Shown: positions 2,430-19,663 of the stretch, in pieces
Layout of the letters: each line of letters starts with the position of its first letter
How positions within the stretch are numbered: the stretch's first letter is position 1
Source of the DNA: a virus
Taxonomy: Duplodnaviria; Heunggongvirae; Uroviricota; Caudoviricetes
Length of the DNA: 20,937 bases
Virus record (IMG/VR): IMGVR_UViG_2713896832_000003
Strand: one strand, 5' to 3'
Program-made: the position numbers and the translations under genes
Notes under the pieces: generated by a model
Database searches by the model: none
Told to the model about the DNA's origin: nothing
The model's input: only the letters and a program-made list of their open reading frames with translations

Positions 2430-4901
2430 TTAAGAATCAGCCTGACTCGGGATCAGTTTTTGCCAGATAACTGAAACGTATTTTGCCTGGTAACGGGCGT
2501 CATCAAGTGCATTATGGCGCTCACCTTCGAATTGAATAGCCGTTCTGGCATCGAAGTCTATGACTTTCCCCAGCTCAACGATTGTGCGTACATCGCGATC
2601 GTTGTAGTAACGCCACGGGCAGGGGATCCCCTGCCGTTCGTATGAACGGCGCAAAATCGTGTTGTCGAAGTTGGCTCCATTCCCCCAAACCTGAACAAAA
2701 AATTCACCGGAGTTTTCGTCGATAAATTCCCGCAATTGTAACAGTGCATCATCTAACGGGATTTCATCGGTCATAATGGCAGATTGCGCTTCGCGTGATT
2801 GCTTAAGCCACCATTTAATGGTGTCCCGATCAATGACTCCGCCAGCAGTTTCCAGATCGATAGTCTTACTAAATTCCGGTCCCATATCTCCGGTTTGCGG
2901 ATCGAAAAATATTGCACCTATTGAGGTGATCGGGGCATCAGGATTTTTTCCCATGGTTTCAAGGTCGATCATTAGATGGTCACACGTCCTGCTGGTGGAT
3001 GTGATTTCGTGATGACCGTTCACCTTAATTGGGTGATCTGCCGTCTCGCCAGTTTCATTATCGCTATTGTGATGCTGATTGCCGCCAGTGTTCTCCTTGT
3101 GTGGATGTTCAGCGCCTTCCATTTCCTCCGGATCATCTTCCTGAACTTCAACCTGATACTCTTCATCGAATGTTTCTTGGTATGTTGCGTCGCCCATCAC
3201 CGCGCCACAATCAGGGCAGTTGCCGCCGCCGGTCTGACCGCAGGCGGTGCAGACTTTTTCCACTTCCTGTTGCGCTACTGGTTCAGGCTGTTTCGTTTCT
3301 GGCTCGTTTTGTAACGCATTTGGACTGTTTTGTTCCGCTTTTTGGTAGTTCCGTTCCGATTCATGCTGGTTCTGGTTCACAGAATCGCGGGTCTGGATCC
3401 CCTTAACCCATTTCGGATCATTCGGGTCACTAATCCCTTCAACAAATTCACCACGTGATGCAGCAAGCAACTTATCAGCGTCAGGCTGGCTGATATTGGC
3501 TGCCTGCATAATTTTGTTTACTTCGTCAGCGGTAACTTTTATCGGCTCTGGTTGTTCTGAATCTTCAGCGGTATCTACATTTTGCGGTAAGCCCGTGTAT
3601 GTGCCATTTTTTCGGGCAAAATATTCTTCTTTTGTGATTTCAGTGGCGCCAGCAGCCAGTGCCTTATCCAGACCAGAAAGTTTGTTTGCGCGACCGTATT
3701 TTTCTCCGTCCTTATCTGCGAAGAGGAAATAGAACGGCCCCTCACGCTCTACAGATGGTTCAGCTTCCGGCGCGGTTTCATTTTTTGGGATATCAGATAC
3801 CTCAGTTTCCACTGCATCAGTTTGTGTTTCTGATGACTGGAGAACATCAACAGTGCCCAGGTCTGTTTCTTCATTCTCAAACACGCCCTTTGTCGTCAGG
3901 TATTCGCAGATATATTTGTTCAGTGCTACGGGATCTTTGTGAATGTCGATCGGACGCTCACGGACAAGGCCAAAAATAGTTTGGCGGTCGTAGCGAAGGG
4001 CATCAGGCTGTTTGCGCATTGATGCCGAGATACGCTTCCAGTCTTCGCGGTCGTTGTCGATAACTTCTTTTTTTGCCCAGCGATGGATGCTGCCGTCAAT
4101 GTTTCCGGCATCCACATCACCAGGCCAGAGAGCGTAGGCCAGTTCGTCATCCAGTGTTTTCCATGTCTGCTTGTATTCGCGATGAATGGCAGCAATGACC
4201 GGGCTGATTTTTCCTGTTGAATTTTCAGTGTACTGTTGATTGGCTCTGGCGCGTGCGAGATCAACAACAGACGTGTATTTTCCGGTTTCCTTGCGTTCAC
4301 CTTCGCGACGTTTTTTCCAGATGCGCATCTCTGCCTGAATTTCGGGCCATTTAGCACCAGGAATACATTTATGCTTAACCCACCCAATGGCGTGCAACTT
4401 AAGCTCCGGATACATGGCGTTAACTTCTGGCATTTTCATCAACGCTTCAACGATATGTCCGTCGAATGTTGCCATGTCTTCCTGCAACAATTCCTGTGCG
4501 CTAATAACCATATCAACGGTGATGTTTTCACATGTGTCGAACTTAACCATGACAGCGTTCTGTACTTCAGGGGCCAGCTTGTCAAAAGTGACGTTCATCG
4601 GATCGGATTCAGTCTCAACCGGGACAAAAGAAGCAGACTCCTCATCCCAGCGGTTTTCCTGCATATATTCAGCATCCCATGAATCGAGGGCAGGGCGGGG
4701 TATGCCAGGTTTATCCTCGCAGACAATAAATTTATAAGCGCAGTCCTGAGCAGCCGGATAATGTTCCAGGAATTGCCAGTGAAATTTTGCTCGAGCACGG
4801 CGTTCGTCGCCAGCTTCAATGGCTGTGGCTACAGCCACAGCGCCTTCTTCCCTTGTTGCCAGTTCGTCAGGAATAGCGGCGCAAATAAAGACTTTACTCA
4901 T
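2430..4901 (-). CDS. exodeoxyribonuclease VIII-like protein: RecE-like central region with a DnaQ/DEDDh-type 3'-5' exonuclease C-terminal domain
   Basis: 823-aa ORF. The central acidic/Q-rich segment with zinc-ribbon CTACGQTGGGNCPDCG resembles the RecE middle region as I recall it. The C-terminal ~180 aa carry DEDDh-like motifs (MIDLETMG...; ...WGNGANFD...; ...HNALDDARYQAKY). Confidence 0.8.
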   Translation of the reverse strand: MSKVFICAAIPDELATREEGAVAVATAIEAGDERRARAKFHWQFLEHYPAAQDCAYKFIVCEDKPGIPRPALDSWDAEYMQENRWDEESASFVPVETESDPMNVTFDKLAPEVQNAVMVKFDTCENITVDMVISAQELLQEDMATFDGHIVEALMKMPEVNAMYPELKLHAIGWVKHKCIPGAKWPEIQAEMRIWKKRREGERKETGKYTSVVDLARARANQQYTENSTGKISPVIAAIHREYKQTWKTLDDELAYALWPGDVDAGNIDGSIHRWAKKEVIDNDREDWKRISASMRKQPDALRYDRQTIFGLVRERPIDIHKDPVALNKYICEYLTTKGVFENEETDLGTVDVLQSSETQTDAVETEVSDIPKNETAPEAEPSVEREGPFYFLFADKDGEKYGRANKLSGLDKALAAGATEITKEEYFARKNGTYTGLPQNVDTAEDSEQPEPIKVTADEVNKIMQAANISQPDADKLLAASRGEFVEGISDPNDPKWVKGIQTRDSVNQNQHESERNYQKAEQNSPNALQNEPETKQPEPVAQQEVEKVCTACGQTGGGNCPDCGAVMGDATYQETFDEEYQVEVQEDDPEEMEGAEHPHKENTGGNQHHNSDNETGETADHPIKVNGHHEITSTSRTCDHLMIDLETMGKNPDAPITSIGAIFFDPQTGDMGPEFSKTIDLETAGGVIDRDTIKWWLKQSREAQSAIMTDEIPLDDALLQLREFIDENSGEFFVQVWGNGANFDNTILRRSYERQGIPCPWRYYNDRDVRTIVELGKVIDFDARTAIQFEGERHNALDDARYQAKYVSVIWQKLIPSQADS

Positions 4902-4994
4902 TTTGTTTTAACCTCATGACAGATTTAAGGATGAACAAATCCCTGCCATTGCTGGCATATAAGAATGAAACCGGATATTTATTACGGAACTGTT

Positions 4995-5186
4995 TTAAAG
5001 ACCTGCCGGGATTTCGATATTATCCTGGTTAATAACTTTATCGACCGGGTAACAGTTACCGGGAATTTTCTGTTCGGTTGCTGCAGTCATACACTCCTGC
5101 ATTGTCCTGTGAACACTGACTGCAATATCAACTGGCACTCCGGAAACAAGAAAAACTGTCAGAACAAGCGCAAATGCTGAATTCAT
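4995..5186 (-). CDS. ydfD: YdfD-like small protein (63 aa, N-terminal hydrophobic segment)
   Basis: The ORF track gives 81 aa, but the internal Met (MNSAFALVLTVFLVSG...) start at 5186 forms an ATGA overlap with the dicB stop, implying translational coupling. Size and position match ydfD downstream of dicB in Qin (recalled). Confidence 0.5.
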   Translation of the reverse strand: MNSAFALVLTVFLVSGVPVDIAVSVHRTMQECMTAATEQKIPGNCYPVDKVINQDNIEIPAGL

Positions 5187-5371
5187 TGTGCACATCCTTT
5201 TGGCATCAGACGTAAACGAGCCAGCATTGAAACAATGCATATTTTATTTAATAGCTCCCGTTCTTGTTTTCTCTTGTTAATGGCATCTTCAGTAAATACA
5301 GGGTTACTGATAGTGACACCAATTTCAAAACAACCTTCAGACGTATTAACGTTTGGTAATAACGTTTTCAT
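5183..5371 (-). CDS. dicB: DicB cell-division inhibitor
   Basis: 62-aa ORF MKTLLPNVNTSEGCFEIGVTISNPVFTEDAINKRKQERELLNKICIVSMLARLRLMPKGCAQ, matching my recollection of Qin DicB in length and sequence. Confidence 0.75.
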   Translation of the reverse strand: MKTLLPNVNTSEGCFEIGVTISNPVFTEDAINKRKQERELLNKICIVSMLARLRLMPKGCAQ

Positions 5372-5419
5372 TATCGCGTCCTCAACAATGAATTTTGTGA
5401 TGCAGTGCCTGGTGCCTCC

Positions 5420-5460
5420 AGGTGACGTTAACCAGTTAACAATTAACGTCGGATATCCGG
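5420..5460. promoter_or_regulatory. palindrome-rich divergent control region between the leftward dicB operon and the rightward replication operon
   Basis: 8-bp inverted repeat GACGTTAA (5423-5430) / TTAACGTC (5443-5450) and the 10-bp palindrome CGGATATCCG (5450-5459), in the ~250-bp gap between divergent operons. Confidence 0.3.
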
Positions 5461-5475
5461 ATTAGTGATTTCAGG

Positions 5476-5697
5476 TTGTATCGTGAGATCAGTGATGGAA
5501 AAAGTATTACGTACATGATCGCCGGGTTAAATAAAGAATATGGCGATGTGGTGGAATCCGGACTGCTTTTTGCAGATCCTGCCGTTGTAGATCGTGAAAC
5601 TGACGAACTTATAGAAAAAGCAATTGCTTTCAAGCTTGCGTATCGACAGCAATACCAACAAAAAGCTGGATGGAATTATGAGTCTTCTTTTTGCTGA
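5476..5697 (+). CDS. hypothetical small protein (TTG start as listed; internal ATG at 5515 possible); uncertain
   Basis: 73-aa ORF with protein-like composition, whereas the overlapping minus-strand ORF 5436..5633 is Ser/Thr-rich and low-complexity. No motif recognised; overlaps the start of the replication gene. Confidence 0.25.
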   Translation: MYREISDGKSITYMIAGLNKEYGDVVESGLLFADPAVVDRETDELIEKAIAFKLAYRQQYQQKAGWNYESSFC

Positions 5698-6643
5698 ACG
5701 CCCACTGGTTATAAACACGCAGCTGGCAATGAAAATTGGCTTAAACGAAGCCATTGTTTTGCAACAACTGCACTACTGGTTGAGAGATACCAACTCCGGC
5801 ATGGAATGTGATGGTGTTCGCTGGATTTATAACACAACGGAACAATGGCTGGAACAGTTCCCATTCTGGTCAGAGTCAACGTTAAAGCGCGCGTTTGCAA
5901 GTCTGAAAACGCTGGGGCTTTTGCGTTGTGAAAAGCTCAATAAATCAAAGCGCGATATGACCAATTTCTACACGATCAACTACGGGAGCGAGCTTTTAGA
6001 TGGTGGCAAATTGAGCGAATCCATCGGTTTAAAATGCGCCGCTCCATCAGGTCAAAATGACACGATGGAAGAGGTCAAAATGAAACGCTCCATTGGTTCA
6101 AAACGACTCAATGTCATCGGGTCAAAATGGCCTGATGATCTTACAGAGAATACAACAGAGATTACTACAGAGAATAAAAAGACTTCTCGTCCGGAAGCTT
6201 CGCAACCGGACCCGCAGACGGTTGAACAGGATTTTTTAACCCGACACCCTGACGCGGTTGTGTTCAGTGCGAAAAAACGCCAGTGGGGCAGCCAGGAAGA
6301 TTTGGCGTGTGCGCAGTGGATCTGGGGGCGAATCGTGAGTCTTTACGAGCAGGCCGCCAGCGATGATGGCGAGATTTCGCGACCGAAAGAACCCAACTGG
6401 ACCGCATGGGCCAACGACGTGCGCACAATGCGGATGCTGGATGGCAGAACTCACAGACAAATTTGTGAAATGTTTGGTCGGGTGCAGCGGGATCCATTCT
6501 GGGTAAAAAATATCATGAGTCCGTCAAAGCTTCGCGAAAAATGGGATGAACTGGTTATCCGCCTGGGGCGTTCGTCTGTACAGCGTTGTGTGAATCATAT
6601 TTCTGAGCCGGATACCGAAATTCCGCCGGGCTTCAGGGGGTAA
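5624..6643 (+). CDS. phage replication initiator (lambda O-like replisome organizer)
   Basis: N-terminal winged-helix-like region (MSLLFAERPLVINTQLAMKIGLNEAIVLQQLHYWL...) typical of phage initiators, and the iteron array lies inside the gene as in lambda O. Likely true start is ATG 5678 (MSLLFAERPLV). Confidence 0.75.
   Translation: MLSSLRIDSNTNKKLDGIMSLLFAERPLVINTQLAMKIGLNEAIVLQQLHYWLRDTNSGMECDGVRWIYNTTEQWLEQFPFWSESTLKRAFASLKTLGLLRCEKLNKSKRDMTNFYTINYGSELLDGGKLSESIGLKCAAPSGQNDTMEEVKMKRSIGSKRLNVIGSKWPDDLTENTTEITTENKKTSRPEASQPDPQTVEQDFLTRHPDAVVFSAKKRQWGSQEDLACAQWIWGRIVSLYEQAASDDGEISRPKEPNWTAWANDVRTMRMLDGRTHRQICEMFGRVQRDPFWVKNIMSPSKLREKWDELVIRLGRSSVQRCVNHISEPDTEIPPGFRG
6020..6129. repeat. origin-like iteron array: five 17-bp direct repeats (consensus TCCATCrGGTCAAAATG) at exact 23-bp spacing
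   Basis: Copies start at 6020, 6043, 6066, 6089 and 6112. A 23-bp period is not a multiple of 3, so the repeat is a DNA-level signal rather than an amino-acid repeat. Followed at 6140-6180 by A/T-rich ACAGAGA(A/T)TA direct repeats. Confidence 0.65.
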
Positions 6644-6683
6644 GTGTTAATTTCTGGTCATGAGGTAATTTTCAGGAGGGCTT

Positions 6684-7106
6684 GTGGCAAAAGTTTTTAC
6701 ACAAGAAGAGCGGGAAAAAATTAAAGGGCAGGTTGTTGAACTCGTACGCCGGAGTGGGCGTGAGACGTTACGGCAACTGGAAGTCAAGACAGGTGCGACA
6801 AGATATCTGATGAGCGTTCTCGCAAGAGAGCTGGTTGCCAGCGGCGATGTATACAACTCTGGTTACGGGTTATTCCCGTCTGAACAGGCGCGTAAGGACT
6901 GGCAAAATGCCCGTAAAAAGCTCTCAAGGGCAAAGCTGAAGGAACCATCTGCGGTTGATCCGGACCTTATCTGGTCATTACCTGACGGAGAAATACGTCG
7001 TTACGACAGGCGTCATAATATGATTTGTACTGAGTGTCGTAAAAGCGAAGTTATGCAGCGCATATTGTCGTTTTATCAGGGGGATGTCCGGTATTTATTG
7101 AAGTGA
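6684..7106 (+). CDS. hypothetical phage protein, 140 aa
   Basis: GTG start 6 nt after an AGGAGG RBS (6672-6677), 40 nt downstream of the replication gene; basic, protein-like composition. Confidence 0.6.
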   Translation: MAKVFTQEEREKIKGQVVELVRRSGRETLRQLEVKTGATRYLMSVLARELVASGDVYNSGYGLFPSEQARKDWQNARKKLSRAKLKEPSAVDPDLIWSLPDGEIRRYDRRHNMICTECRKSEVMQRILSFYQGDVRYLLK

Positions 7107-7174
7107 CGAGATTAAAGTGCATTAGTTCAGATGCAAATTGACATTTTGTGGCACAGGGTAGAGCTAGCGTGGTT

Positions 7175-7198
7175 GTCCGCTTTGTGCCAAGAGCGGAC
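7175..7198. repeat. palindromic repeat, copy A (GTCCGCTTTGTGCCAAGAGCGGAC)
   Basis: Imperfect hairpin with GTCCGC(T) / (A)GCGGAC arms, between the convergent 6684 gene and the GIY-YIG gene; two mismatches to copy B. Confidence 0.5.
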
Positions 7199-7235
7199 TT
7201 TGCAAAATGGGGGTTATTTCAATCAAAACGTAACG

Positions 7236-8180
7236 TCACAACCAGCCGACGCTCTCTCGCCATTTATAATTAGTAACTTTATCATTTTCGCTTATTTTTT
7301 TAGATATAGAGCGCGGCTCTCTTCCTAGATACTCAGATATTTCTATCGGGGACAAATCAAAATCAACAAGCATGACTCTAAGTTTTTCCATTTCCTTTAA
7401 AGTCCAAGGCTTGCCATAATTTTCATAAAGAGATACCTTATGCTCCCTGATAGTTCGCTTTCTCTGAGTTTCACTTTCCCTCTGAAAAATCTCGCTTTTA
7501 AATTGTGAACGGAACTCTTTACAGAAGTTGTTATCAGTTTTTTTGTTATATAGATTGCTAAAAATAAGCTGGGATGCCGGGTCTAAATCAGGTGTGTTAA
7601 TAATGAAAACTTTGACCTTTTCCATATAGGGATATTCAATTTTACCCAATATGCTTAATTGCTTTATATTAAAAAAACCTCTCAAATCAAAAGATTTAAT
7701 GAGCTTTGATTGGATTACACTTTCAATCCTGCTTGCATTTAAATAACAGTACTTTGCCATTGGAAGGGCCCATACTACCAGTTGAGGAATATATTTTTCT
7801 AATGCAATGCTCTGCCAATCAGTATCAAAGGTTTGGCTTTTTGCTAGCATGTTTTTCGGCAAATCAGAATACATTGTGGTAGATGCCCATATCTTATAAT
7901 CATTCGCCAAGGCTTGATAGTATTTTGTGTGGTTATGAATTTTATAAGCTGACATGAAGCGATAAACGTCTTCGTCGTGACCAGCGTCGTAAATTGTTCG
8001 ATTTCCTCTAAGATAACCGTCGTAATGTTCGGTTATCCTTCTACCTACATTACAACTTACCCCAACGTAAACCACACGACTGAAAAGTCCTTTATGGACA
8101 ATAAGATAAACTCCGCTACAGCCAGATTTCCTGGCCTCTGATAGAGAACCTAAAAATCTCCATTCCATAATTAAATCCAT
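7236..8180 (-). CDS. GIY-YIG nuclease-domain protein with a C-terminal putative HTH region
   Basis: N-terminal SGVYLIVHKGLFSRVVYVGVSCNVGRRITEH fits the GIY...YIG...R...E pattern of GIY-YIG nucleases. The C-terminal ~60 aa (PWTLKEMEKLRVMLVDFDLSPIEISEYLGREPRSISKKIS) are HTH-like. AT-rich coding sequence. Confidence 0.7.
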   Translation of the reverse strand: MDLIMEWRFLGSLSEARKSGCSGVYLIVHKGLFSRVVYVGVSCNVGRRITEHYDGYLRGNRTIYDAGHDEDVYRFMSAYKIHNHTKYYQALANDYKIWASTTMYSDLPKNMLAKSQTFDTDWQSIALEKYIPQLVVWALPMAKYCYLNASRIESVIQSKLIKSFDLRGFFNIKQLSILGKIEYPYMEKVKVFIINTPDLDPASQLIFSNLYNKKTDNNFCKEFRSQFKSEIFQRESETQRKRTIREHKVSLYENYGKPWTLKEMEKLRVMLVDFDLSPIEISEYLGREPRSISKKISENDKVTNYKWRESVGWL

Positions 8181-8348
8181 AATTATTGCTACTGTTTTTG
8201 TTTATCATTATTTTCGTGAAACTTCAACAATTTTATCCAAAAGCTAAGGGCAAAGACTTATATAATTATACTTGTCATCGTTAGCGATTATATAGAGTAG
8301 TGGCGCTGACCTGCTCCCTGGTGATTCACACAGAATGCTGTTAGTAAT

Positions 8349-8372
8349 GTCCGTTCCTCGCTCTCAGCGGAC
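8349..8372. repeat. palindromic repeat, copy D (GTCCGTTCCTCGCTCTCAGCGGAC)
   Basis: Same arm sequences as copies A, B and C; about 170 nt upstream of the GIY-YIG gene start. Confidence 0.45.
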
Positions 8373-8390
8373 CTTCAGCTCAGTGATATC

Positions 8391-8414
8391 GTCCGCTCTG
8401 TGCAAAGAGCGGAC
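8391..8414. repeat. palindromic repeat, copy B (GTCCGCTCTGTGCAAAGAGCGGAC)
   Basis: 8-bp arms GTCCGCTC/GAGCGGAC around an 8-nt spacer; starts 42 nt after the start of copy D. Confidence 0.5.
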
Positions 8415-8727
8415 GTTGGTATGCAAGAGCCCTCCAAAAGTTGATGGTTGGTTTGCAGGGGGGCTTAAAGAAACTGCACTTATCAAGTTGAAGTTCTGTA
8501 TTCAGCGAAATCGTAGCACTCTGACGATAAGTAACTCCGGTACTCCGCTCTTCGATGAAGAACCAGAGTAATCCCCCCGAAAAACCAGCGCATCAAAATT
8601 GGATCTTCAGCGGTAGCTTATCGGCTATCGGAAGTACAGGTGTGGATTCGTGGTGAATTGCTTTGATAATAAACGATTAATACGGAAAAACGCATTAATC
8701 ATTTATTAGCTTTTAGTAAACCACAAT

Positions 8728-10077
8728 TTATTCCGTTTTACATATCATAGTAGTCGATTGGAGAATATAGTTTCTGGGAATGTACTCTTCAAAGTGTTCG
8801 TCCTTTTTAAATACATGAACTACATTTGGGAATAATTGATAGTCAACAGGGTGTATAGCGTTTGGATTATGGTACATGTACATGGCTGTACACCATGGTT
8901 CTTGATAGTTAGGGTCACTTACATCGGCTGAAAATGGATGTGGGGCTGCATCCTGATCAGTTTTAACACCACTGACGTACACTTTGAATCCACTCGCCTC
9001 TACACCTGCAAGAATTCCCATCCGGTTAAACTTAGGTATGGTTGCTTGAGTAGTGAGTAAAACGGCAGAAACATAATTATTTTGTTCTGAGCCAAAAAAG
9101 TTCGACTTGATACTTCTATTTTCATCTGTATGTCTTTCAATAGAAATGCCTGACTCAATATCAATCCCGTACAAATAGCTATGCAAGGCTTCGCTTGAGA
9201 AGGCCATGGACATTCTTTTTGAATAATCCTGCATTGCTATGACAAATGGTTTGTTCTTTGTATGGTTGAGTTCCCAGTAATGAACTTTCTCTGGCTCAGG
9301 GCAATGCCGGACTTTTTTTAATAAACTTCTTGCAAACTTAAAAGGCATGACATTTAGAACATGTTTTCTTAATTCATCCATCTGTTCATCGTTAATGACT
9401 TTTCTTTCAAGAGGGGCTTCTGCTTCAGCAATGCTTACAGCCTCTACAGCAATTTCCACTCCAAATTTAGATAGCAGAAAATCTGGTTGATTGTATTCTC
9501 TATTCATTTCAAAGTCGAGTTCATAAAATACAGCGTTCAAATATAATTCAAATAACCTTGAATTAAATGCATCACTTTGAAAATCCCTTATAAATATTCC
9601 ATCAGGATCTTTGAACCAGTATGCAAGTTCCTCAAGAACAATATATGCAGGGAAATGAAGAGGGTCTTCGAGGAGCATTTTTATATAAACATTCCTTTTT
9701 TTCGCTGGGACCTTACTCAAGAATAATGAAAAAGGTTTGGTTGATTCATCGCCTTGCATGAATGTACCATTTTGGTGCTGCGCCAGCATCTTTGGTATGT
9801 CATCGTTCAAATTATTAAGCAAGACATCCATTGAATCAAATGAAGCCAAGACGTTTATTGCTCTGAATTTTTTATCTAAATCCCGACCTAAGACTATTGC
9901 GTTAAAATCTTTATCAATATTGCATATGATTATTGTGGATAACAATGTTATCCCATTCCCCTCATATTTAAACCAGCGTATCTCCTCAGAAAATGTCTTA
10001 AGGTAAGGTGAGCGACCGTAAAAATAAATATCAAATTGTTCTTTGCTGATCTCACTGAAGTGTAATCCTGCGTTCAT
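8728..10077 (-). CDS. hypothetical protein, 449 aa, no recognised domain
   Basis: Long AT-rich ORF with an AAAAGGAA RBS before the ATG, upstream of and co-oriented with the GIY-YIG gene. A hairpin-plus-T-rich terminator candidate lies on the minus strand around 8672-8700. Confidence 0.7.
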   Translation of the reverse strand: MNAGLHFSEISKEQFDIYFYGRSPYLKTFSEEIRWFKYEGNGITLLSTIIICNIDKDFNAIVLGRDLDKKFRAINVLASFDSMDVLLNNLNDDIPKMLAQHQNGTFMQGDESTKPFSLFLSKVPAKKRNVYIKMLLEDPLHFPAYIVLEELAYWFKDPDGIFIRDFQSDAFNSRLFELYLNAVFYELDFEMNREYNQPDFLLSKFGVEIAVEAVSIAEAEAPLERKVINDEQMDELRKHVLNVMPFKFARSLLKKVRHCPEPEKVHYWELNHTKNKPFVIAMQDYSKRMSMAFSSEALHSYLYGIDIESGISIERHTDENRSIKSNFFGSEQNNYVSAVLLTTQATIPKFNRMGILAGVEASGFKVYVSGVKTDQDAAPHPFSADVSDPNYQEPWCTAMYMYHNPNAIHPVDYQLFPNVVHVFKKDEHFEEYIPRNYILQSTTMICKTE

Positions 10078-10361
10078 ACCAATTCCTTTTCAATGAATAA
10101 TTGGCCTTTAGGAGTGATTCCCTTTGTCTTTAATTCAGTTCTAACTAGTTCTTTAATCCAATAGCCTAAGCTCATCATGCAGTTGGATCATAAGACAACG
10201 CCCTATAGTGCTCGTGATACTATAGGGCATCTGACCACACTGTTAACTGGAGTAACGACTATGGCAGGAATACAGCATAACCAAACTCACCCCAAACTTA
10301 CATAGCGCTTTCTGGCCGTGAGCATAACAAGGTCCACTCCTCGCTCATAAGGGACAACCAT

Positions 10362-10394
10362 ACTCAAATCTCCCACATTGCAGGAGATTTGAGT
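10362..10394 (+). promoter_or_regulatory. 12-bp perfect inverted repeat whose right arm covers the RBS of the recombinase gene
   Basis: ACTCAAATCTCC (10362-10373), 9-nt loop, GGAGATTTGAGT (10383-10394), ending 1 nt before ATG 10395. Would sequester the Shine-Dalgarno sequence in the mRNA. Confidence 0.4.
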
Positions 10395-10997
10395 ATGAAC
10401 ACGTCACCGTGGAACAAAGACCGTATCATAGGCCAAAAAAGACCACTTCAGATATCTCATATCTGGGGTATCCGAATCCGACTTGAACTGGAAGGTAAAA
10501 CTCGCGATTTAGCTCTGTTCAACATGGCCCTGGATAGTAAGCTTCGAGGCTGTGATCTGGTCAAACTCAAAGTATCTGATGTTGCATATGGTGGCTCTGT
10601 TTCAAGCAGAGCAACGGTGTTGCAACAGAAAACCGGTAGCCCTGTTCAATTTGAGATAACCAAAGGGACAAGAGAAGCTGTTGCTGCATTGATACAGCTT
10701 AGCAATTTGCACAGTAAAGACTTCTTGTTTCGGTCTAGGGTCGGAACTAACCAGCACATTTCAACCCGGCAATACAACCGAATCTTTCATGGGGGGGTAG
10801 AAAAGCTTGGTCTCGAAGATTCGCTTTACAGCACACATTCCATGAGAAGAACAAAACCTTACCTGATCTACAAGAAAACCAAGAATCTCCGGGTGATCCA
10901 ACTTCTGTTGGGTCATAAGAAACTGGAAAGCACAGTCCGTTATCTGGGCATTGAAGTCGATGATGCGTTAGAGATTTCTGAATCGATTGAAGTCTAA
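10395..10997 (+). CDS. FimB/FimE-like short tyrosine recombinase (catalytic domain only, ~200 aa)
   Basis: Contains the tyrosine-recombinase catalytic residues in order (LRGCDL; QQKTGSPVQ; HSMRRT; LLLGHKKLESTVRYL) but no N-terminal core-binding domain, the FimB/FimE architecture. The ORF track starts at TTG 10389; ATG 10395 with an AGGAG RBS is more likely. Confidence 0.8.
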   Translation: MNTSPWNKDRIIGQKRPLQISHIWGIRIRLELEGKTRDLALFNMALDSKLRGCDLVKLKVSDVAYGGSVSSRATVLQQKTGSPVQFEITKGTREAVAALIQLSNLHSKDFLFRSRVGTNQHISTRQYNRIFHGGVEKLGLEDSLYSTHSMRRTKPYLIYKKTKNLRVIQLLLGHKKLESTVRYLGIEVDDALEISESIEV

Positions 10998-11003
10998 GGT
11001 TGT

Positions 11004-11025
11004 CAGGGCTGCAACAGCAGCCCTG
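11004..11025. terminator. hairpin just after the recombinase stop (CAGGGCTGC-AACA-GCAGCCCTG)
   Basis: 9-bp perfect stem 7 nt after the TAA; no clear U-tract, so terminator function is uncertain. Confidence 0.35.
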
Positions 11026-11356
11026 TGCCATAAGCGGAAGTATTTAACAACTATCAGTGTTGTTCAACAGATAAAGGGGCACTTGATTTTTTCTGTTCTC
11101 AGGAAATGATAAAAGCGCGTCGGTTCAAGCCTGCTTAACGGGAGTTTGTTAATCCTGTTGCCGTGACGTTTTGACACCATTATGATGGGGAGACACTTAA
11201 TGTATGAAGGTTCCGCCACTTATACCTGTCCAACAACTGCCTCGGATGTTTCTTTGTATGAATAAGTGGTAATGAGTAGTGAATCGCTAACAGTCACCCG
11301 AACAATCGGTGCCTGCAATTAATTCTATATTCTAAACGAGGGGGAGATTATTACAC

Positions 11357-12337
11357 ATGAAATTTAAGGACAAGAACCTTAAGGCTCTCGCGGAATGTAT
11401 CATAGGAGATAATAAGGCATTTCTGTATCGTTCAAGCAGTCACATCACTGAATTTTTCCAGGACTGCGGCATGGATGTTACTCATGACGGATCCACTCGG
11501 TGGAAATGGACGGCCCAGAGGCTTGAAGAACTTCTTTATGAGCCACAGTCAAAGCCACATACTTTGCCGGAAAGGTTTGTTCATGTGCTCAGAACTTTAA
11601 TGTTAAAAGAAGATGCAATGGATGACGATCCAGGAAGATTAAAGGCGCTTGAAGAACTGAACAAGCCTTTGATGCGGGAAGGCTATGAGGCATTCTATGG
11701 TGACGATCGCCTTTTGTATATACGCCATACCGATACCAAAACGGTTTCAGTCAGTAATAACCCTCATCGGCCCTTAACGCCTCACGAAGTAGAATGCAGA
11801 AGGTTACTGACCGCGTTTCTTGATACCTGCTCAGAAGATGAGTTAATAGAAGATATTCTCCTTCCTTTATTCCGGCAACTTGGTTTTCACCGGATAACAG
11901 CAGTGGGACATAAAGATAAAGCGCTGGAATACGGGAAAGACATCTGGATGAAGTTCACACTGCCAACTCAGCATGTTCTTTATTTCGGCATTCAGGCAAA
12001 AAAAGGTAAGTTGGATGCGTCCGGTGCCAGCAAATCTACGAATTCAAACGTGGCAGAAATCTTCAACCAGGTACTGATGATGCTTGGCCATGAAATATTT
12101 GACCCAGAAACAAATAGAAAGGTGCTGGTAGATCATGCCTTTATCGTTGCTGGCGGAGAAATTACTAAACAGGCGAGGAACTGGCTGGGCGGGAAACTTG
12201 ATGCCAGCAAAAGAAGCCAGATAATATTTATGGACCGGGAAGACATTCTTAATTTATATACTGTAAGTAATGTACCTCTGCCAACAGGTGCTCTCATCTC
12301 TGATGATGCCGTTAAGAACGATGATATTCCTTTCTAA
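11357..12337 (+). CDS. hypothetical protein with an Mrr-like (PD-(D/E)xK, D...QxK) nuclease motif in the C-terminal half
   Basis: Strong RBS GAGGGGGAG before the ATG. Motif ...EYGKDIWMKF...HVLYFGIQAKKGKL resembles the Asp...Gln-x-Lys catalytic signature of Mrr-type restriction endonuclease domains; the N-terminal ~160 aa are unassigned. Confidence 0.65.
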   Translation: MKFKDKNLKALAECIIGDNKAFLYRSSSHITEFFQDCGMDVTHDGSTRWKWTAQRLEELLYEPQSKPHTLPERFVHVLRTLMLKEDAMDDDPGRLKALEELNKPLMREGYEAFYGDDRLLYIRHTDTKTVSVSNNPHRPLTPHEVECRRLLTAFLDTCSEDELIEDILLPLFRQLGFHRITAVGHKDKALEYGKDIWMKFTLPTQHVLYFGIQAKKGKLDASGASKSTNSNVAEIFNQVLMMLGHEIFDPETNRKVLVDHAFIVAGGEITKQARNWLGGKLDASKRSQIIFMDREDILNLYTVSNVPLPTGALISDDAVKNDDIPF

Positions 12338-12561
12338 TCAGAAGTACGTCTTTTTCTGAAAGAATACGTGATAGGTAGCCACACCACACCTTTAGTGACC
12401 CCTTAATCTGGTAATATAACAGCCCGTATGAATGTCCGCGGCATCGCGGGCTGAAATTTATTAAAAATACTTATTCATCAAGCTGGAGTAGTTTGCCGAG
12501 TAACTGTAAACGCCCAACTTAACCGGACCATTCACTTTTAGATTGCTACCAGCAAACCAAC

Positions 12562-12585
12562 TTCCGTTTCTCGCTCAAAGCGGAC
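12562..12585. repeat. palindromic repeat, copy C (TTCCGTTTCTCGCTCAAAGCGGAC)
   Basis: Closest to copy D; lies ~225 nt after the Mrr-like gene at the right edge of the AT-rich island. Confidence 0.45.
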
Positions 12586-12764
12586 TAGAAGGTTAGCTTG
12601 CGTCGGACTTGGCGTATTTAAAGAAGTGCTGGTGGTAACTGGTTGTTGTGTTCCATTTCTACAAAACAAAATCACAGAAACTATACCCAATAGTTATATT
12701 GAATCAATGATGAGACAGCCTCATATTTATCAGAACTGGTGTACGTCCAATACAGGAGGTTGTC

Positions 12765-12854
12765 GTGCTGGTTCTCAAATATGCGCTAGCTATTGCGGCT
12801 GTAATGGCAATTTATTGTCTTGCTATTGTTCTTACGGATCGCCTTTCTGATTGA
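12765..12854 (+). CDS. candidate small hydrophobic peptide, 29 aa (MLVLKYALAIAAVMAIYCLAIVLTDRLSD)
   Basis: GTG start 5 nt after a perfect AGGAGG (12754-12759); single predicted transmembrane-like helix. Not in the ORF track because of size; overlaps the listed 12626..12850 Cys-rich ORF in another frame. Confidence 0.3.
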   Translation: MLVLKYALAIAAVMAIYCLAIVLTDRLSD

Positions 12855-13065
12855 TTTTATATTGGCGAGGTGACGGGAGTTAAGTAGAATTGCTGCGGGT
12901 GCTTGAGGCTATCTGCCTCAGGCATGAACACCAAAGGCAGATAGAGAAAAGCCCCAGTTAACATTACGCGTCCTGCAAGACGTTTAACATTAATCTGAGG
13001 CTCAATCTATGAACGGCAAATCTAGGTTAGCCTCTTACGTGCCGAAAGGCAAGGAGAAGCAGGCT

Positions 13066-13221
13066 ATGAAGCAGCAAAAGGCGATGTTAATCGCCCTGAT
13101 CGTCATCTGTTTAACCGTCATAATGACGGCACTGGTAACGAGGAAAGACCTCTGCGAGGTACGAATCCGAACCGGCCAGACGGAGGTCGCTGTCTTCACA
13201 GCTTACGAACCTGAGGAGTAA
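13066..13221 (+). CDS. hokD: Hok/Gef family membrane toxin HokD (RelF)
   Basis: 51-aa product MKQQKAMLIALIVICLTVIMTALVTRKDLCEVRIRTGQTEVAVFTAYEPEE matches recalled HokD; AAGGAG RBS at 13051-13056. The listed ORF 13009..13221 is an in-frame 19-codon upstream extension. Confidence 0.85.
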   Translation: MKQQKAMLIALIVICLTVIMTALVTRKDLCEVRIRTGQTEVAVFTAYEPEE

Positions 13222-13290
13222 GAGACCAGGCGGGGGAGAATCCCTCGCCACCTCTGATGTGTCAGGCATCCTCAACGCACCCGCACTTAA

Positions 13291-13320
13291 CCCGCTTCGG
13301 CGGGTTTTTGTTTTTATTTT
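13291..13320 (+). terminator. rho-independent terminator after hokD
   Basis: CCCGC-TTCG-GCGGG stem-loop followed by TTTTTGTTTTT. Confidence 0.6.
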
Positions 13321-13436
13321 CAACGCGTTTGAAGTTCTGGACGGTGCCGGAATAGAATCAAAAATACTTAAGTAGCGCGCAGGGATAAGAGGGATGGTCC
13401 CTTAAAGGGGAGAGCTAATTATCCGGAAGGATTCTG

Positions 13437-13688
13437 ATGATGAACATCGAAGAACTGCGTAAAATTTTTTGTGAAGATGGCCTCTATGCTGTGTGCGTTG
13501 AAAATGGAAATCTTGTTAGTCATTACCGCATTATGTGTTTGCGAAAGAATGGGGCTGCGTTAATTAATTTTGTGGATGGTCGAGTGACAGACGGATTTAT
13601 CTTGCGCGAAGGTGAGTTTGTCACTTCATTACAGGCACTGAAAGAGATTGGAATAAAAGCAGGCTTTTCAGCTTTTGCAGAAGAATAA
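13437..13688 (+). CDS. rem: Rem-like small protein, 83 aa
   Basis: GGAAGG RBS; 83-aa ORF directly downstream of hokD, matching the size and position of rem in Qin (recalled gene order hokD-rem-ydfU-quuQ). Sequence identity is not independently verified. Confidence 0.5.
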   Translation: MMNIEELRKIFCEDGLYAVCVENGNLVSHYRIMCLRKNGAALINFVDGRVTDGFILREGEFVTSLQALKEIGIKAGFSAFAEE

Positions 13689-13754
13689 ACTCATCTACAA
13701 TCTTGCGCGGGGCTGAACTCCCGCTGAGTAACACCGTGCCACCGGAGAAAACCG

Positions 13755-14033
13755 ATGGCACGCAACGTAAAATATTACAATTCTGATAATTCGCCCGTTC
13801 TTGCCTGCACGCACGAGCGGTATTCTCACGCATTCAAGTCTGAATGGTTCCAGCACCCTCCATGCACTGAAGAGCAGGCTGAATGGATAATTCAGTGTTA
13901 CCGCAGGCGCGGATACGAGGTTAAGAAAGCTCTTAGTCTCGACTACCGTCACTGGATAATCTCAGTCAGATTGCCTTACTCCGAACGCCCACCGCGTCCG
14001 TCCCGTACATTCCAGCAACGCATCTGGAGGTAA
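13755..14033 (+). CDS. hypothetical phage protein, 92 aa
   Basis: GGAGA RBS; its stop overlaps the RBS of the next gene, giving a tight operon with the downstream genes. Confidence 0.55.
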   Translation: MARNVKYYNSDNSPVLACTHERYSHAFKSEWFQHPPCTEEQAEWIIQCYRRRGYEVKKALSLDYRHWIISVRLPYSERPPRPSRTFQQRIWR

Positions 14034-14034
14034 C

Positions 14035-15084
14035 GTGCGGGTATTACTTCGACCTGTTCTGGTACCGGAACTCGGGCTGGTGGTCGTTAAGCCGGGCCGT
14101 GAATCCATGCCGGTATTCCACAATACCCGGGTACTGGTGGAGCCGGAACCGAAAAGCATGCGTAATCTGCCGTCCGGGGTCGTTCCTGCCGTTCGCCAGC
14201 CGCTGGTGGAAGACAAAACATTGCTGCCGTTTTTCAGTAACGCACGGGTAATTCGTGCTGCTGGTGGTGCTGGTGCATTGTCTGACTGGCTGTTGCGCCA
14301 TATTAAATCCTGCCAGTGGCCACACGGCGATTATCATCACAGCGAAACCGTCATTCACCGTTATGGTACCGGCGCAATGGTGTTGTGCTGGCACTGCGAC
14401 AACCAGCTGCGTGACCAGACATCCGAATCACTCGAGCAACTTGCTCATCAAAACCTGTCAGCATGGATGATTGACGTCATCGGTCACGCAATAAGCGGTA
14501 CGCAGGAGCGTGAATTATCTTTGGCTGAATTATCCTGGTGGGCGGTCCGCAATCAGGTGGCGGACGCGCTACCGGAAGCGGTATTACGTGGTTCGCTGGG
14601 GTTGCGTGCGGAAAAAATCCGCTCAATGTACCGTGAAAGCGACATCGTACCGGGAGAGCAGACCGCCAACAGCATACTGAAACAGCGCACAAAAAATCTT
14701 GCGCCGCTGCCTCACGCCCACCAGCAACAGAACCCACCACAGGAAAAGACGGTGGTCAGCATTGCCGTTGATCCTGAGTCTCCGGAATCTTTCATGAAAC
14801 GACCTAAACGTCGCCGCTGGGTTAACGAGAAATACACACGCTGGGTGAAGACACAGCCGTGTGCGTGTTGTGGTAAGCCAGCCGACGATCCCCATCACCT
14901 GATTGGTCATGGTCAGGGCGGAATGGGGACAAAATCTCACGATATTTTCACGCTACCGCTGTGTCGGGAGCATCACAACGAGCTTCATGCGGATCCTCTG
15001 GCGTTCGAAGAAAAGCATGGTTCTCAGGTTGATTTAATTTTTCGTTTTCTTGATCACGCCTTTGCAACTGGCGTGCTTGGGTAA
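14035..15084 (+). CDS. ydfU: YdfU-like (DUF968-type) protein with a C-terminal Cys/His HNH-like motif
   Basis: GTG start 5 nt after GGAGG; 349 aa; C-terminal ...CACCGKPADDPHHLIGHGQGGMGTKSHDIFTLPLCREHHNELH. Sits between rem and rusA/Q as in Qin-type prophages. Confidence 0.75.
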   Translation: MRVLLRPVLVPELGLVVVKPGRESMPVFHNTRVLVEPEPKSMRNLPSGVVPAVRQPLVEDKTLLPFFSNARVIRAAGGAGALSDWLLRHIKSCQWPHGDYHHSETVIHRYGTGAMVLCWHCDNQLRDQTSESLEQLAHQNLSAWMIDVIGHAISGTQERELSLAELSWWAVRNQVADALPEAVLRGSLGLRAEKIRSMYRESDIVPGEQTANSILKQRTKNLAPLPHAHQQQNPPQEKTVVSIAVDPESPESFMKRPKRRRWVNEKYTRWVKTQPCACCGKPADDPHHLIGHGQGGMGTKSHDIFTLPLCREHHNELHADPLAFEEKHGSQVDLIFRFLDHAFATGVLG

Positions 15085-16432: not shown

Positions 16433-16508
16433 GGCCCTTTAGCTCAGTGGTGAGAGCGAGCGACTCATAATCGACAGGTCGCTGGGTCAAATCCAGCAAG
16501 GGCCACCA
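16433..16508 (+). tRNA. tRNA, anticodon CAU, Ile2 (ileX-like)
   Basis: 76 nt; 7-bp acceptor stem GGCCCTT/AAGGGCC, 4-bp D stem, anticodon loop CTCATAA, discriminator A and encoded CCA. Resembles E. coli tRNA-Ile2 as recalled, but has two mismatches in the anticodon stem and G at T-loop position 54. Confidence 0.7.
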
Positions 16509-16509
16509 A

Positions 16510-16586
16510 CCGTCACCAGTTCATCAGGAAAGAGCGTCAACCCTTTAAGTTGAGTGTGCGAGGTTCGAGTCCCCGGTGGCGGTCCA
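16510..16586 (+). tRNA. atypical tRNA-like gene, anticodon loop CCTTTAA (anticodon UUU if functional); possibly a pseudo-tRNA
   Basis: Folds as a cloverleaf with encoded CCA, but has C1-G72, C at position 8, C at position 33 and one T-stem mismatch. Confidence 0.4.
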
Positions 16587-16588
16587 GT

Positions 16589-16664
<76 letters not shown>

Positions 16665-16667
16665 TAT

Positions 16668-16742
<75 letters not shown>

Positions 16743-16975: not shown

Positions 16976-17034
16976 AAATCCCTTTCATTTCTCAGTGTAA
17001 AACTACGCCATCCGTTATTTGCGGAGGTGAGGCT

Positions 17035-19197: not shown

Positions 19198-19267
19198 AAT
19201 ATTTATAACCCCAATAAAGGGCGTCAGGAATGACGCCTTTTTTATTGCAGAAAAGCGAGAGGTAATT

Positions 19268-19663
19268 ATGCGTAAAGTTTGTGCAGCAATTTTGTCCGCA
19301 GCCATTTGTCTGGCCGTATCCGGTGCGCCTGCATGGGCGTCTGAACATCAGTCCACGCTGAGCGCGGGGTATCTTCATGCCCGGACCAACGTTCCCGGCA
19401 GTGATGATCTGAACGGGATTAACGTGAAATATCGTTATGAGTTTACGGATACGCTGGGGCTGGTGACGTCATTCAGCTATGCAGGAGACAAGAATCGCCA
19501 GCTGACCCGTTACAGCGATACCCGCTGGCATGAAGATTCCGTGCGTAACCGCTGGTTCAGCGTGATGGCGGGGCCGTCTGTGCGCGTGAATGAATGGTTC
19601 AGCGCGTATGCGATGGTACTGGTGGAAGAACTATCGAGCAAGCACGTGCGAACTTGCGGGTAA
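19268..19663 (+). pseudogene. lom: lom (Ail/Lom outer-membrane protein), 3'-truncated at about codon 118
   Basis: N-terminal 118 residues match recalled lambda Lom (signal peptide ...AAICLAVSGAPAWASEHQSTLSAGYLHA...NEWFSAYAM), then diverge into 13 unrelated codons and a stop. Lom is ~206 aa. Confidence 0.75.

Follow-up and report, generated by a model that had tools for sequence, protein, structure and literature searches.

The early region of a defective lambdoid prophage carries an AT-rich island with several nuclease genes, and the question raised by this locus is whether these genes form one defence system or came together as separate units. The island occupies positions 7199-12561 of the IMG/VR virus record IMGVR_UViG_2713896832_000003 (Caudoviricetes), whose 20,937 nt were analysed as a whole and are called the window below. 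It encodes a 314-aa GIY-YIG nuclease, a 449-aa protein, a 200-aa tyrosine recombinase (Int) and a 326-aa PD-(D/E)xK protein. All four open reading frames (ORFs) are present as described in an initial annotation, which had proposed that they constitute a single undescribed defence locus. Our results lead to a different answer. The island is real and swappable, and it consists of three independent single-gene cassettes and a small recombinase gene, not of one system. Its largest gene is already known; the notable feature is a conserved arrangement of two site classes with the small recombinase embedded in it. Our preferred reading, to which we assign a probability of roughly 0.6, is that the cassettes form an array in the slot between the DUF977 gene and hok of a Qin-like prophage and are swapped site-specifically, with Int as the likeliest catalyst.

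Repeat analysis revealed a 24-nt motif, GTCCGCT-N10-AGCGGAC, in which inverted arms of 7-9 bp (GTCCGCT/AGCGGAC) flank a central hexamer. The motif occurs in two classes, A with the centre GTGCCA and B with the centre TCGCTC. Six sites lie in the island (five canonical sites and A''), and no convincing copy was found elsewhere in the 21-kb window. From left to right the map reads backbone-A, the GIY-YIG gene, B-18 nt-A', an AlpA remnant with the 449-aa gene (PD-T7-1, see below), B', int, A'', the 326-aa gene and B''-backbone (Table 1). The left half of A is phage backbone and its right half belongs to the GIY-YIG cassette. Similarly, B' is divided between the PD-T7-1 cassette, which contributes the left half, and the int unit, which contributes the degenerate right arm. 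The degenerate left arm of A'' lies in a hairpin 3' of the int stop codon, and the right half of this site opens cassette 3. B and A', together with the 18 nt between them, form a 66-bp junction that recurs in 790 E. coli genomes.

A 'spread' megablast search with the island showed that it is modular. Some genomes matched both edges only, with other cargo between them, and all homology breakpoints were on site edges; backbone homology resumed at ~12556, beside B''. Between constant flanks, the cargo of related prophages and phages changes from locus to locus and is otherwise unrelated. It may be AbiH with a 463-aa protein, an FRG-domain protein, two hypothetical proteins, a 252-aa protein or else a 'chaperonin', and it is always bracketed by an A site on the left and a B site on the right. 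This pattern of a lambdoid cargo (moron) slot was found at loci L004-L008, L158 and L159 and in K-12 Qin, which bears out the earlier suggestion that the island occupies a variable slot holding defence genes, and shows it to be swappable. In K-12 Qin (L002, 5982-6996) flxA lies between a B-like site and an A site that falls within the annotated ydfV ORF; this pair is reversed relative to the backbone when compared with the window.

Junction alignments were used to position the exchange within the sites. The left half of site A, GTCCGCTTT, was constant in six lambdoid loci with different cargo, and the right half, AAGAGCGGAC, was constant together with the sequence that follows it for the GIY-YIG cassette in three contexts. 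The left half of site B, GTCCGTTCC, accompanied the GIY-YIG cassette in three contexts, and the right half tracked the right-hand neighbour. Over all loci, site pairs sharing only one flank were then tallied. In 45 pairs the two sites agreed in the half adjoining the flank that they share and differed in the other half, and the reverse was found in 3; these pairs are not all mutually independent. As half-sites travel with the adjacent flank, the crossover is placed between positions 9 and 16, i.e. in the central hexamer. This position is expected of a site-specific recombinase acting on 9-bp arms and a 6-bp overlap, and not of homologous recombination over 24 bp.

The position of the crossover bears on another explanation, in which the sites are conserved hairpin terminators or 'boundary sequences', exchange occurs by homologous recombination through RecA or a prophage RecE-like exonuclease, and the recombinase is a passenger. 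Sites of both classes are able to form hairpins with stems of 7-9 bp, but a U-tract is absent after these hairpins, and in a terminator scan no site qualified and none was followed by a T-run. Hairpin formation has no need of two discrete, strongly conserved centres, and in B it is the loop sequence rather than the pairing that is conserved. A length of 24 bp is near the minimum for homologous recombination, and the prophage does encode an 823-aa RecE-type exonuclease; however, the crossovers were within the hexamer rather than scattered along the arms. Conserved linkers between lambdoid modules are likewise an old idea, yet these sites are kept from Erwinia to Proteus and Idiomarina when their surroundings are not. 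Finally, most arrays lack int, as a passenger role would allow, but where int occurs it is always between a B centre and an A centre. Weighing these points, we consider exchange at hairpins by homologous recombination rather unlikely.

The arrangement is not confined to E. coli prophages. An exact scan for the B pattern, with one genome per species and a chance expectation of less than 1 by our own estimate, identified at least 120 loci in Erwinia, Pantoea, Klebsiella, Citrobacter, Enterobacter, Serratia, Proteus and others. They were on chromosomes and plasmids and, beyond Enterobacterales, in Idiomarina and on a Pseudomonas plasmid. The 0.92 Mb of sequence scanned at these loci contained 187 B and 138 A sites (TCGCTC centres, 180; GTGCCA centres, 123), and adjacent sites were co-oriented in a ratio of 195:10. 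The most frequent transition was a long A-to-B interval (88), followed by a short B-to-A interval (58, 38-42 start to start), B to B (21), a long B-to-A interval (17) and A to A (11). A-to-B intervals measured 0.1-7 kb with a median of 1.7 kb, and there was no conservation beyond the 66-bp B-linker-A junction. Among all loci, 23.5% of BLAST endpoints fell within 20 bp of a site, compared to 1.3% of random positions.

The cargo of these cassettes consists of general accessory genes, led by LysR (15 of 150), MFS (8) and LysE (8) and followed by GNAT, AraC, ars and APH(6), with no bias in gene orientation (95 same, 84 opposite). Two simpler descriptions of the cargo were rejected. The first, that the cassettes carry mainly defence genes, failed because AbiTii and Gabija were the only such genes among 150 ORFs. 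The second, that cargo is restricted to A-to-B intervals, failed because the 17 long B-to-A intervals hold ordinary genes (VapC, MFS, GNAT). In E. coli Nissle 1917 (L003, 10759-16502) a 5-kb operon for a TonB-dependent receptor and ABC iron uptake lies between an A and a B site, beside an int-ETEC_3214 unit; A/B cassettes thus also carry fitness genes, here in an island of a probiotic strain. Both centres have a look-alike elsewhere. The A centre is similar to the 7-bp spacer GTGCCAA in the sfx sites of the R64 shufflon (Rci), and the B centre, in reverse complement, is similar to TGAGCGAGG in ERIC; we take both to be probable coincidences.

The recombinase gene lies inside the B'-A'' junction. 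Int consists of a catalytic domain only (PF00589, Phage_integrase; E = 2.1e-17, 63.9 bits with a cut-off of 27.1), in which the catalytic residues R53, K81, H150, R153, H176 and Y185 (numbering of the 202-aa ORF) are all intact. The family comprises at least 8000 clusters of ~200 aa that are 77-97% identical across Gammaproteobacteria. Homologues with 50-59% identity are on alphaproteobacterial plasmids, flanked by diverged but related arms (GTCCGGT/AGCGGTC). The initial annotation had described Int as FimB/FimE-like, a relationship that did not hold up: the scores were 27.4 bits with NF007371 (cut-off 222, E = 2e-6) and 19.2 bits with NF007370 (cut-off 221, E = 7.5e-4), and Int is not a close relative of FimB/FimE but a member of this large, highly conserved ~200-aa family. 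Integron-integrase models gave 17 bits with cut-offs of 265-435. K-12 intK/ydfW was considered as a homologue and discarded, as tblastn gave no similarity.

The int segment, from position 10332 onward, was present in ~2000 genomes with varied neighbours, including Nissle 1917. In Escherichia, Erwinia and Proteus copies (87% identity) int was always between an upstream TCGCTC(A) centre and a downstream GTGCCA centre; the outer half-sites of these flanking sites varied with the neighbours and the inner arms were int-specific. In marine gammaproteobacterial copies (84% identity) the downstream centre was kept as GTACCA or GTGCCA, and the upstream sequence had diverged such that a TCGCTC centre was not clearly recognisable. 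On the marine contigs L143-L146 int is located between an arsenic-resistance module and copper-resistance modules, beside a Toprim primase, suggesting that metal-resistance cassettes are also moved by the A/B system. An inverted repeat spans the int ribosome-binding site, perfect in the window and perfect or near-perfect in the Escherichia, Erwinia and Proteus copies, and a hairpin 3' of the stop codon was found in all int copies compared. The repeat at the start codon may provide translational or autoregulatory control.

These features of Int also allowed us to assess whether the island is a decayed P4/CP4-like element, with int a truncated integrase, AlpA its regulator and the repeats att debris. 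Int does lack an N-terminal domain, but the ~200-aa length is found throughout the family and all catalytic residues are present, hence there has been no truncation. There is indeed an AlpA pseudogene fragment in the island; however, this fragment is a constituent of the PD-T7-1 cassette even in phage mEp460, whose copy of the cassette has equal length. The GIY-YIG cassette and int also occur in CP4-like islands, but the sites follow a regular A/B arrangement across genera. A decayed element is therefore very improbable.

A mechanism of cassette exchange can be proposed from these results. Exchange takes place inside the hexamer, such that each cassette bears the right half of an A site and, at its other end, the left half of a B site. 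The two classes have common arms but different overlaps, and sites would consequently recombine only within their own class. Through A×A and B×B crossovers with another replicon or a circular cassette, a cassette lying between A and B could be replaced or added. Alternatively, A×A or B×B recombination could release a circle containing the cargo and one B-linker-A junction, which would then integrate at another location. Insertion of such circles into a slot that held only PD-T7-1, the state seen in mEp460, could have produced the three-cassette stack of the window. Int, encoded in the B'-A'' junction, would be the likeliest catalyst acting on both site classes, and taxa with A/B sites also have Int, Idiomarina included. 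A broader proposal is that the A/B sites and the 200-aa Int constitute a previously undescribed cassette-exchange system with two heterospecific sites, widespread in Gammaproteobacteria and with diverged relatives in Alphaproteobacteria, which shuttles defence, resistance and metabolic cassettes among lambdoid phages, plasmids, integrative and conjugative elements and genomic islands, the island being a snapshot of three stacked nuclease cassettes. We advance this wider proposal tentatively, at somewhat less than even odds. We found no description in the open-access literature that matched the site strings, the protein accessions or an integron-like cassette system, and the system may already be named.

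Each cassette was then considered in turn. The 449-aa protein, which the initial annotation had taken for an unknown partner of the nucleases, is PD-T7-1. It matched the PADLOC model PD-T7-1 (PDLC04073) with E = 7.3e-157 (residues 8-447 on model positions 2-448 of 452), more weakly matched PD-T7-5 (3e-40) and phrog_8571, and had no Pfam or NCBIfam match. PD-T7-1 was recovered from ECOR46 by functional selection as a single prophage-borne gene (PMC9519451). The ECOR46 gene (RCQ85672.1) is one 449-codon ORF that was cloned with 302 bp of upstream and 45 bp of downstream sequence; alone it confers protection against T7 and, to a greater degree, against T-even phages, and HHpred detected a weak PD-(D/E)xK signal at aa 171-220 (PMC9519451). 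A second group reported that the NILS69 copy protects against a Teseptimavirus and reduces the size of T7 plaques (PMC12409345). The island protein has the same length as the product of the cloned ECOR46 gene, and this length and the hidden Markov model (HMM) match tie the two together. We conclude that the product of cassette 2 is PD-T7-1. This anti-phage protein, published in 2022, bears a weak PD-(D/E)xK signature and is validated as acting alone, two laboratories having observed protection from the gene cloned by itself with its own promoter; the locus is thus not undescribed.

The cultured phage mEp460_ev081 provides a natural single-cassette version of the slot. PD-T7-1 (447 of 449 residues identical) is the sole gene between DUF977/LygF and hok, in an A-PD-T7-1-B arrangement with the 1917-bp spacing of the window. 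The left half of its B site, GTCCACTCC, is the same as in the window, and the right half is that of the phage backbone. An invertible promoter switch of the Fim type for PD-T7-1 was also considered and rejected: the sites are co-oriented, the window contains no inverted site pair around a promoter, and the mEp460 cassette is arranged alike and has no int.

From these data it is hardly credible that the four genes form one multi-component defence system. Three nuclease folds do cluster in a prophage cargo slot, but PD-T7-1 protects alone and is the only cargo in mEp460, and the other genes also occur separately; the reading of several nucleases plus an unknown partner therefore fails. The genes are in mixed orientation, have their own intergenic regions and are separated by recombination sites, each being a separate cassette that is found alone elsewhere. 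The full gene set was present with ~100% identity in 181 of 5426 complete E. coli genomes, as one system would predict; however, these genomes differ only by insertion sequence (IS) insertions and look clonal as judged from their sequences. In several otherwise identical strains IS1, IS2 or IS3 is inserted within the island, in one case between PD-T7-1 and int.

The cassette 1 protein has 314 aa and a C-terminal SANT/Myb-like helix-turn-helix (HTH). The GIY-YIG residues GVY25, YVG38-40, R48, H52, E153 and N171 were invariant among 26 homologues, and the protein has the GIY-YIG fold. PF01541 was below the gathering threshold (15.8 bits with a threshold of 22.6, E = 0.017), and a few homologues have a precomputed match to this family. 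The protein family is small (72 clusters) and mainly gammaproteobacterial, and a PDB sequence search with its profile gave no meaningful matches. The segment 7173-8384, which contains this cassette, occurs alone or directly adjoining int in CP4-like islands, beside type I restriction-modification (RM) and DarTG genes. Its fold and neighbourhood make the 314-aa protein most likely a candidate stand-alone nuclease against invading DNA.

The cassette 3 protein combines an N-terminal helical domain with a C-terminal PD-(D/E)xK domain. E160/D161, D195, Q213 and K215 of its Mrr-like E..D..QxK motif were invariant down to 23% identity, and the predicted secondary structure fits the alpha-beta-beta-beta-alpha-beta core. 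Mrr_cat was weakly matched by 4 of 20 distant homologues (best E = 0.0025), and a PDB sequence search with the 326-aa profile gave no meaningful matches. The AlphaFold model had a predicted local distance difference test (pLDDT) score of 66 overall, and Foldseek returned AspBHI, EndoMS, FokI and EcoO109I, all with E > 0.09; as the nuclease core was modelled with low confidence (pLDDT 36-55), this fold search is merely suggestive. We identified 3877 homologues, nearly all of 326 aa, and 971 relatives in a library clustered at 50%. Length and sequence (~72% identity) are maintained from Enterobacterales to Verrucomicrobia, cyanobacteria and Omnitrophica, and ~100 bp upstream of the gene is also conserved between E. 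coli and Klebsiella. In Vibrio, Ruficoccus and Klebsiella the gene stands alone and is located in variable islands. On the basis of fold and neighbourhood the 326-aa protein is most likely a candidate stand-alone restriction-type nuclease against invading DNA.

Cassettes 1 and 3 could instead encode selfish or housekeeping nucleases, such as a GIY-YIG homing endonuclease, a competition factor of plasmids or mobile elements, or a repair enzyme. A GIY-YIG domain followed by a C-terminal HTH is an I-TevI-like layout, and there is a weak TIGR01453 match; single-gene GIY-YIG defence nevertheless has a precedent in PD-T4-3. The cross-phylum identity of the 326-aa protein is atypical of fast-evolving defence genes, and the cargo of A/B cassettes in general is mostly non-defence. 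However, the slot itself holds AbiH and PD-T7-1 in relatives, and the neighbours of cassette 1 and 3 genes are often defence genes (type I RM, DarTG, TIR, KAP NTPase, VapBC, SMC-like ATPases). The profile searches proposed in the initial annotation gave a divided result, in that PADLOC named the 449-aa protein and matched neither the GIY-YIG nor the 326-aa protein. A selfish or housekeeping role for one or both of these proteins is in our view unlikely, though it carries appreciable weight.

Several observations weigh against site-specific exchange by Int and against a defensive island. Recombination at the A and B sites and the activity of Int are proposed from sequence comparison. The int-side arms of B' and A'' are degenerate. 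Close int copies were present in 7-8 of the 120 B-selected 8-kb loci and ~112 of the 120 had no int nearby; as int is absent near most arrays, Int would need to act in trans, and the catalyst may instead be another enzyme, i.e. a host, phage or island recombinase. The Klebsiella, Vibrio and Ruficoccus copies of the 326-aa gene had no recognisable A/B sites beside them, indicating that such genes also move otherwise. With regard to defence, the degree of conservation of the 326-aa protein would be unusual in a defence gene, and neither cassette 1 nor cassette 3 had a significant PADLOC match. In addition, the general accessory cargo elsewhere means that the A/B arrangement is about cassette mobility and is uninformative on defence.

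The prophage that carries the island is a defective lambdoid element, identical to the window, that adjoins rspB in many E. coli genomes; this insertion position on the rspB side is that of Qin in K-12. Its left part contains, in order, genes for an integrase, an excisionase and the RecE-type exonuclease, followed by ydfD, dicB and a ydaT-like pseudogene. Next are an O-like replication protein (5678-6643) and a DUF977/Ren-like protein (6684-7106), then the island, and to its right sok/hokD, rem, a DUF968 protein, rusA, an antiterminator, three tRNAs, and truncated holin and tail genes. The island therefore lies between the replication genes and hok/sok, as had been stated. Alignment with K-12 Qin was confined to 137-1950, 4135-5455 and 13052-15084, so that the entire stretch 5455-13052 is unlike K-12; the K-12 Qin content given in the initial annotation (intK, flxA, ydfV and relBE) was correct. 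The AT-richness noted earlier was also borne out, with 40.3% G+C in the island compared to 48.2% in the remaining window. It is uneven by unit, however (GIY-YIG, 0.363; PD-T7-1, 0.384; int, 0.448; 326 aa, 0.429), the AT-rich units being those of GIY-YIG and PD-T7-1, and the int and 326-aa units being nearer the flanks.

Further observations concern the surrounding prophage. The dicA/dicC immunity region is missing (5183-5700), with only the ydaT-like pseudogene before the O-like gene, and the holin, tail-tip, Lom and tail-fibre genes (17035-20937) are marked as truncated in the identical RefSeq record. The G+C content reaches 0.59-0.64 at 17000-18000, inside the truncated tail-tip gene, compared to a window mean of 0.46. 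The antiterminator gene is directly followed by three tRNA genes at 16433-16739, annotated in RefSeq as Ile, Thr and Gly. The hok/sok type I toxin-antitoxin locus is intact; it is at 12897-13221 (Rfam sok, 111.7 bits; hokD, 13066-13221), directly right of the cargo slot, and is the conserved right anchor in all related phages. When the entire window was scanned with Rfam models at E ≤ 1, sok and the three tRNAs were the only matches, with none at the 24-bp sites. ORFs of 65, 78 and 74 aa (7131-7328, 8335-8571 and 12626-12850) overlap or adjoin A/B sites, have no family matches and are probably not genes.

Table 1. Coordinates of sites, genes and other features of the island (positions in the window)
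Feature	Position	Strand	Remarks
Site A, left island boundary	7175..7198	+	GTCCGCT TT GTGCCA AG AGCGGAC; right half changes with cargo
Cassette 1 gene, 314-aa GIY-YIG nuclease	7236..8180	-	C-terminal SANT/Myb-like HTH
Site B, right end of cassette 1	8349..8372	+	GTCCGTT CC TCGCTC TC AGCGGAC
Site A'	8391..8414	+	Centre GTGCAA
AlpA/HTH regulator pseudogene fragment	8586..8666	+	Inside cassette 2; RefSeq annotation of identical record
Cassette 2 gene, PD-T7-1, 449 aa	8728..10077	-	PADLOC full-length match
Promoter-like site, cassette 2	10246-10219	-	
Site B'	10332..10355	+	GTCCACTCC TCGCTC ATAAGGGAC
Inverted repeat, perfect, 15 bp, 9-nt loop	10359..10397 (10359-10373 / 10383-10397)	+	Covers int Shine-Dalgarno sequence and start codon
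int, 200-aa tyrosine recombinase	10395..10997	+	Catalytic domain only; PF00589; inside B-to-A junction
Site A''	11016..11039	+	AGCAGCCCT GTGCCA TAAGCGGAA
Cassette 3 gene, 326 aa	11357..12337	+	N-terminal helical domain and C-terminal PD-(D/E)xK domain (Mrr-like E..D..QxK)
Site B'', right island boundary	12562..12585	+	TTCCGTT TC TCGCTC AA AGCGGAC; right half is phage backbone

The route by which defence genes and other accessory genes pass between unrelated mobile elements in the absence of transposons or extended homology was stated to be unknown in a 2026 study (PMC13586616). The island offers base-level cassette boundaries, two site classes with crossovers in a 6-bp centre and a candidate recombinase, and thereby turns this into a testable question. 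If site-specific exchange is correct, accessory-gene cassettes throughout Enterobacterales could be delimited from the site pattern, which would yield a list of candidate defence genes such as the two nucleases of the island, and the system would hint at a natural tool for two-site cassette exchange. Should this reading be wrong, what is left is a known defence gene, PD-T7-1, and two uncharacterised nucleases in a prophage hotspot, which would be of modest interest.

At the level of single genes, the island resembles described defence genes to different degrees. Like the PD-T7-1 described by Vassallo et al. (2022, Nat Microbiol), the island gene is single, has its own upstream region and is prophage-borne. 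There is no gene-level difference by length and HMM match; in the island, however, PD-T7-1 is one of three cassettes and not the only cargo. With PD-T4-3 and R.Eco29kI, cassette 1 has in common the GIY-YIG fold and its catalytic residues. Cassette 3 shares the E..D..QxK motif and an extra N-terminal domain with Mrr/type IV, modification-dependent enzymes, AspBHI being the top but non-significant fold match. Unlike these enzymes, neither cassette 1 nor cassette 3 reached the threshold for any PADLOC, Pfam or NCBIfam family, and neither has an adjacent methyltransferase.

At the level of the locus, the closest likeness is to the defence hotspots of P2/P4 prophages, reportedly described by Rousset in 2022. 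In these and other prophage hotspots (Vassallo et al. 2022; PMC13586616), a fixed position in the phage genome is likewise occupied by alternative defence genes. Here the slot is lambdoid, between a DUF977/Ren-like gene and hok, and its boundaries are base-precise by virtue of conserved sites, which suggests how the swap occurs. FimB and FimE resemble Int in having ~200 aa and a catalytic domain only, without an arm-binding or core-binding domain. Nonetheless, Int is remote from the invertase models, and A/B sites are predominantly co-oriented rather than an inverted pair around a promoter.

Integrons (IntI, attC, attI) are similar in that they also consist of arrays of short promoter-independent cassettes with structured sites of ~66 bp containing two inverted-repeat pairs; a tyrosine recombinase is associated, and the cassettes can carry defence genes, as in A/B arrays. 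Several features set the two apart. Compared by consensus, GTCCGCT-N10-AGCGGAC is unlike attC R''/R'. The A/B junction has two double-stranded core-type sites, both of which are breakpoints, whereas attC has one crossover point. A/B cassette genes have no orientation bias, and Int has 200 aa, lacks the IntI-specific insertion and is encoded inside a junction rather than beside an attI/Pc platform. The pdif (XerC/XerD) modules of Acinetobacter plasmids likewise have alternating arm-6 bp-arm sites around accessory modules and are common to unrelated replicons. In contrast to pdif, the arms and centres of A and B are not dif-like, the two classes are told apart by centre and not by orientation, and a small recombinase gene lies within the arrays. 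The proposed A×A/B×B swap resembles recombinase-mediated cassette exchange.

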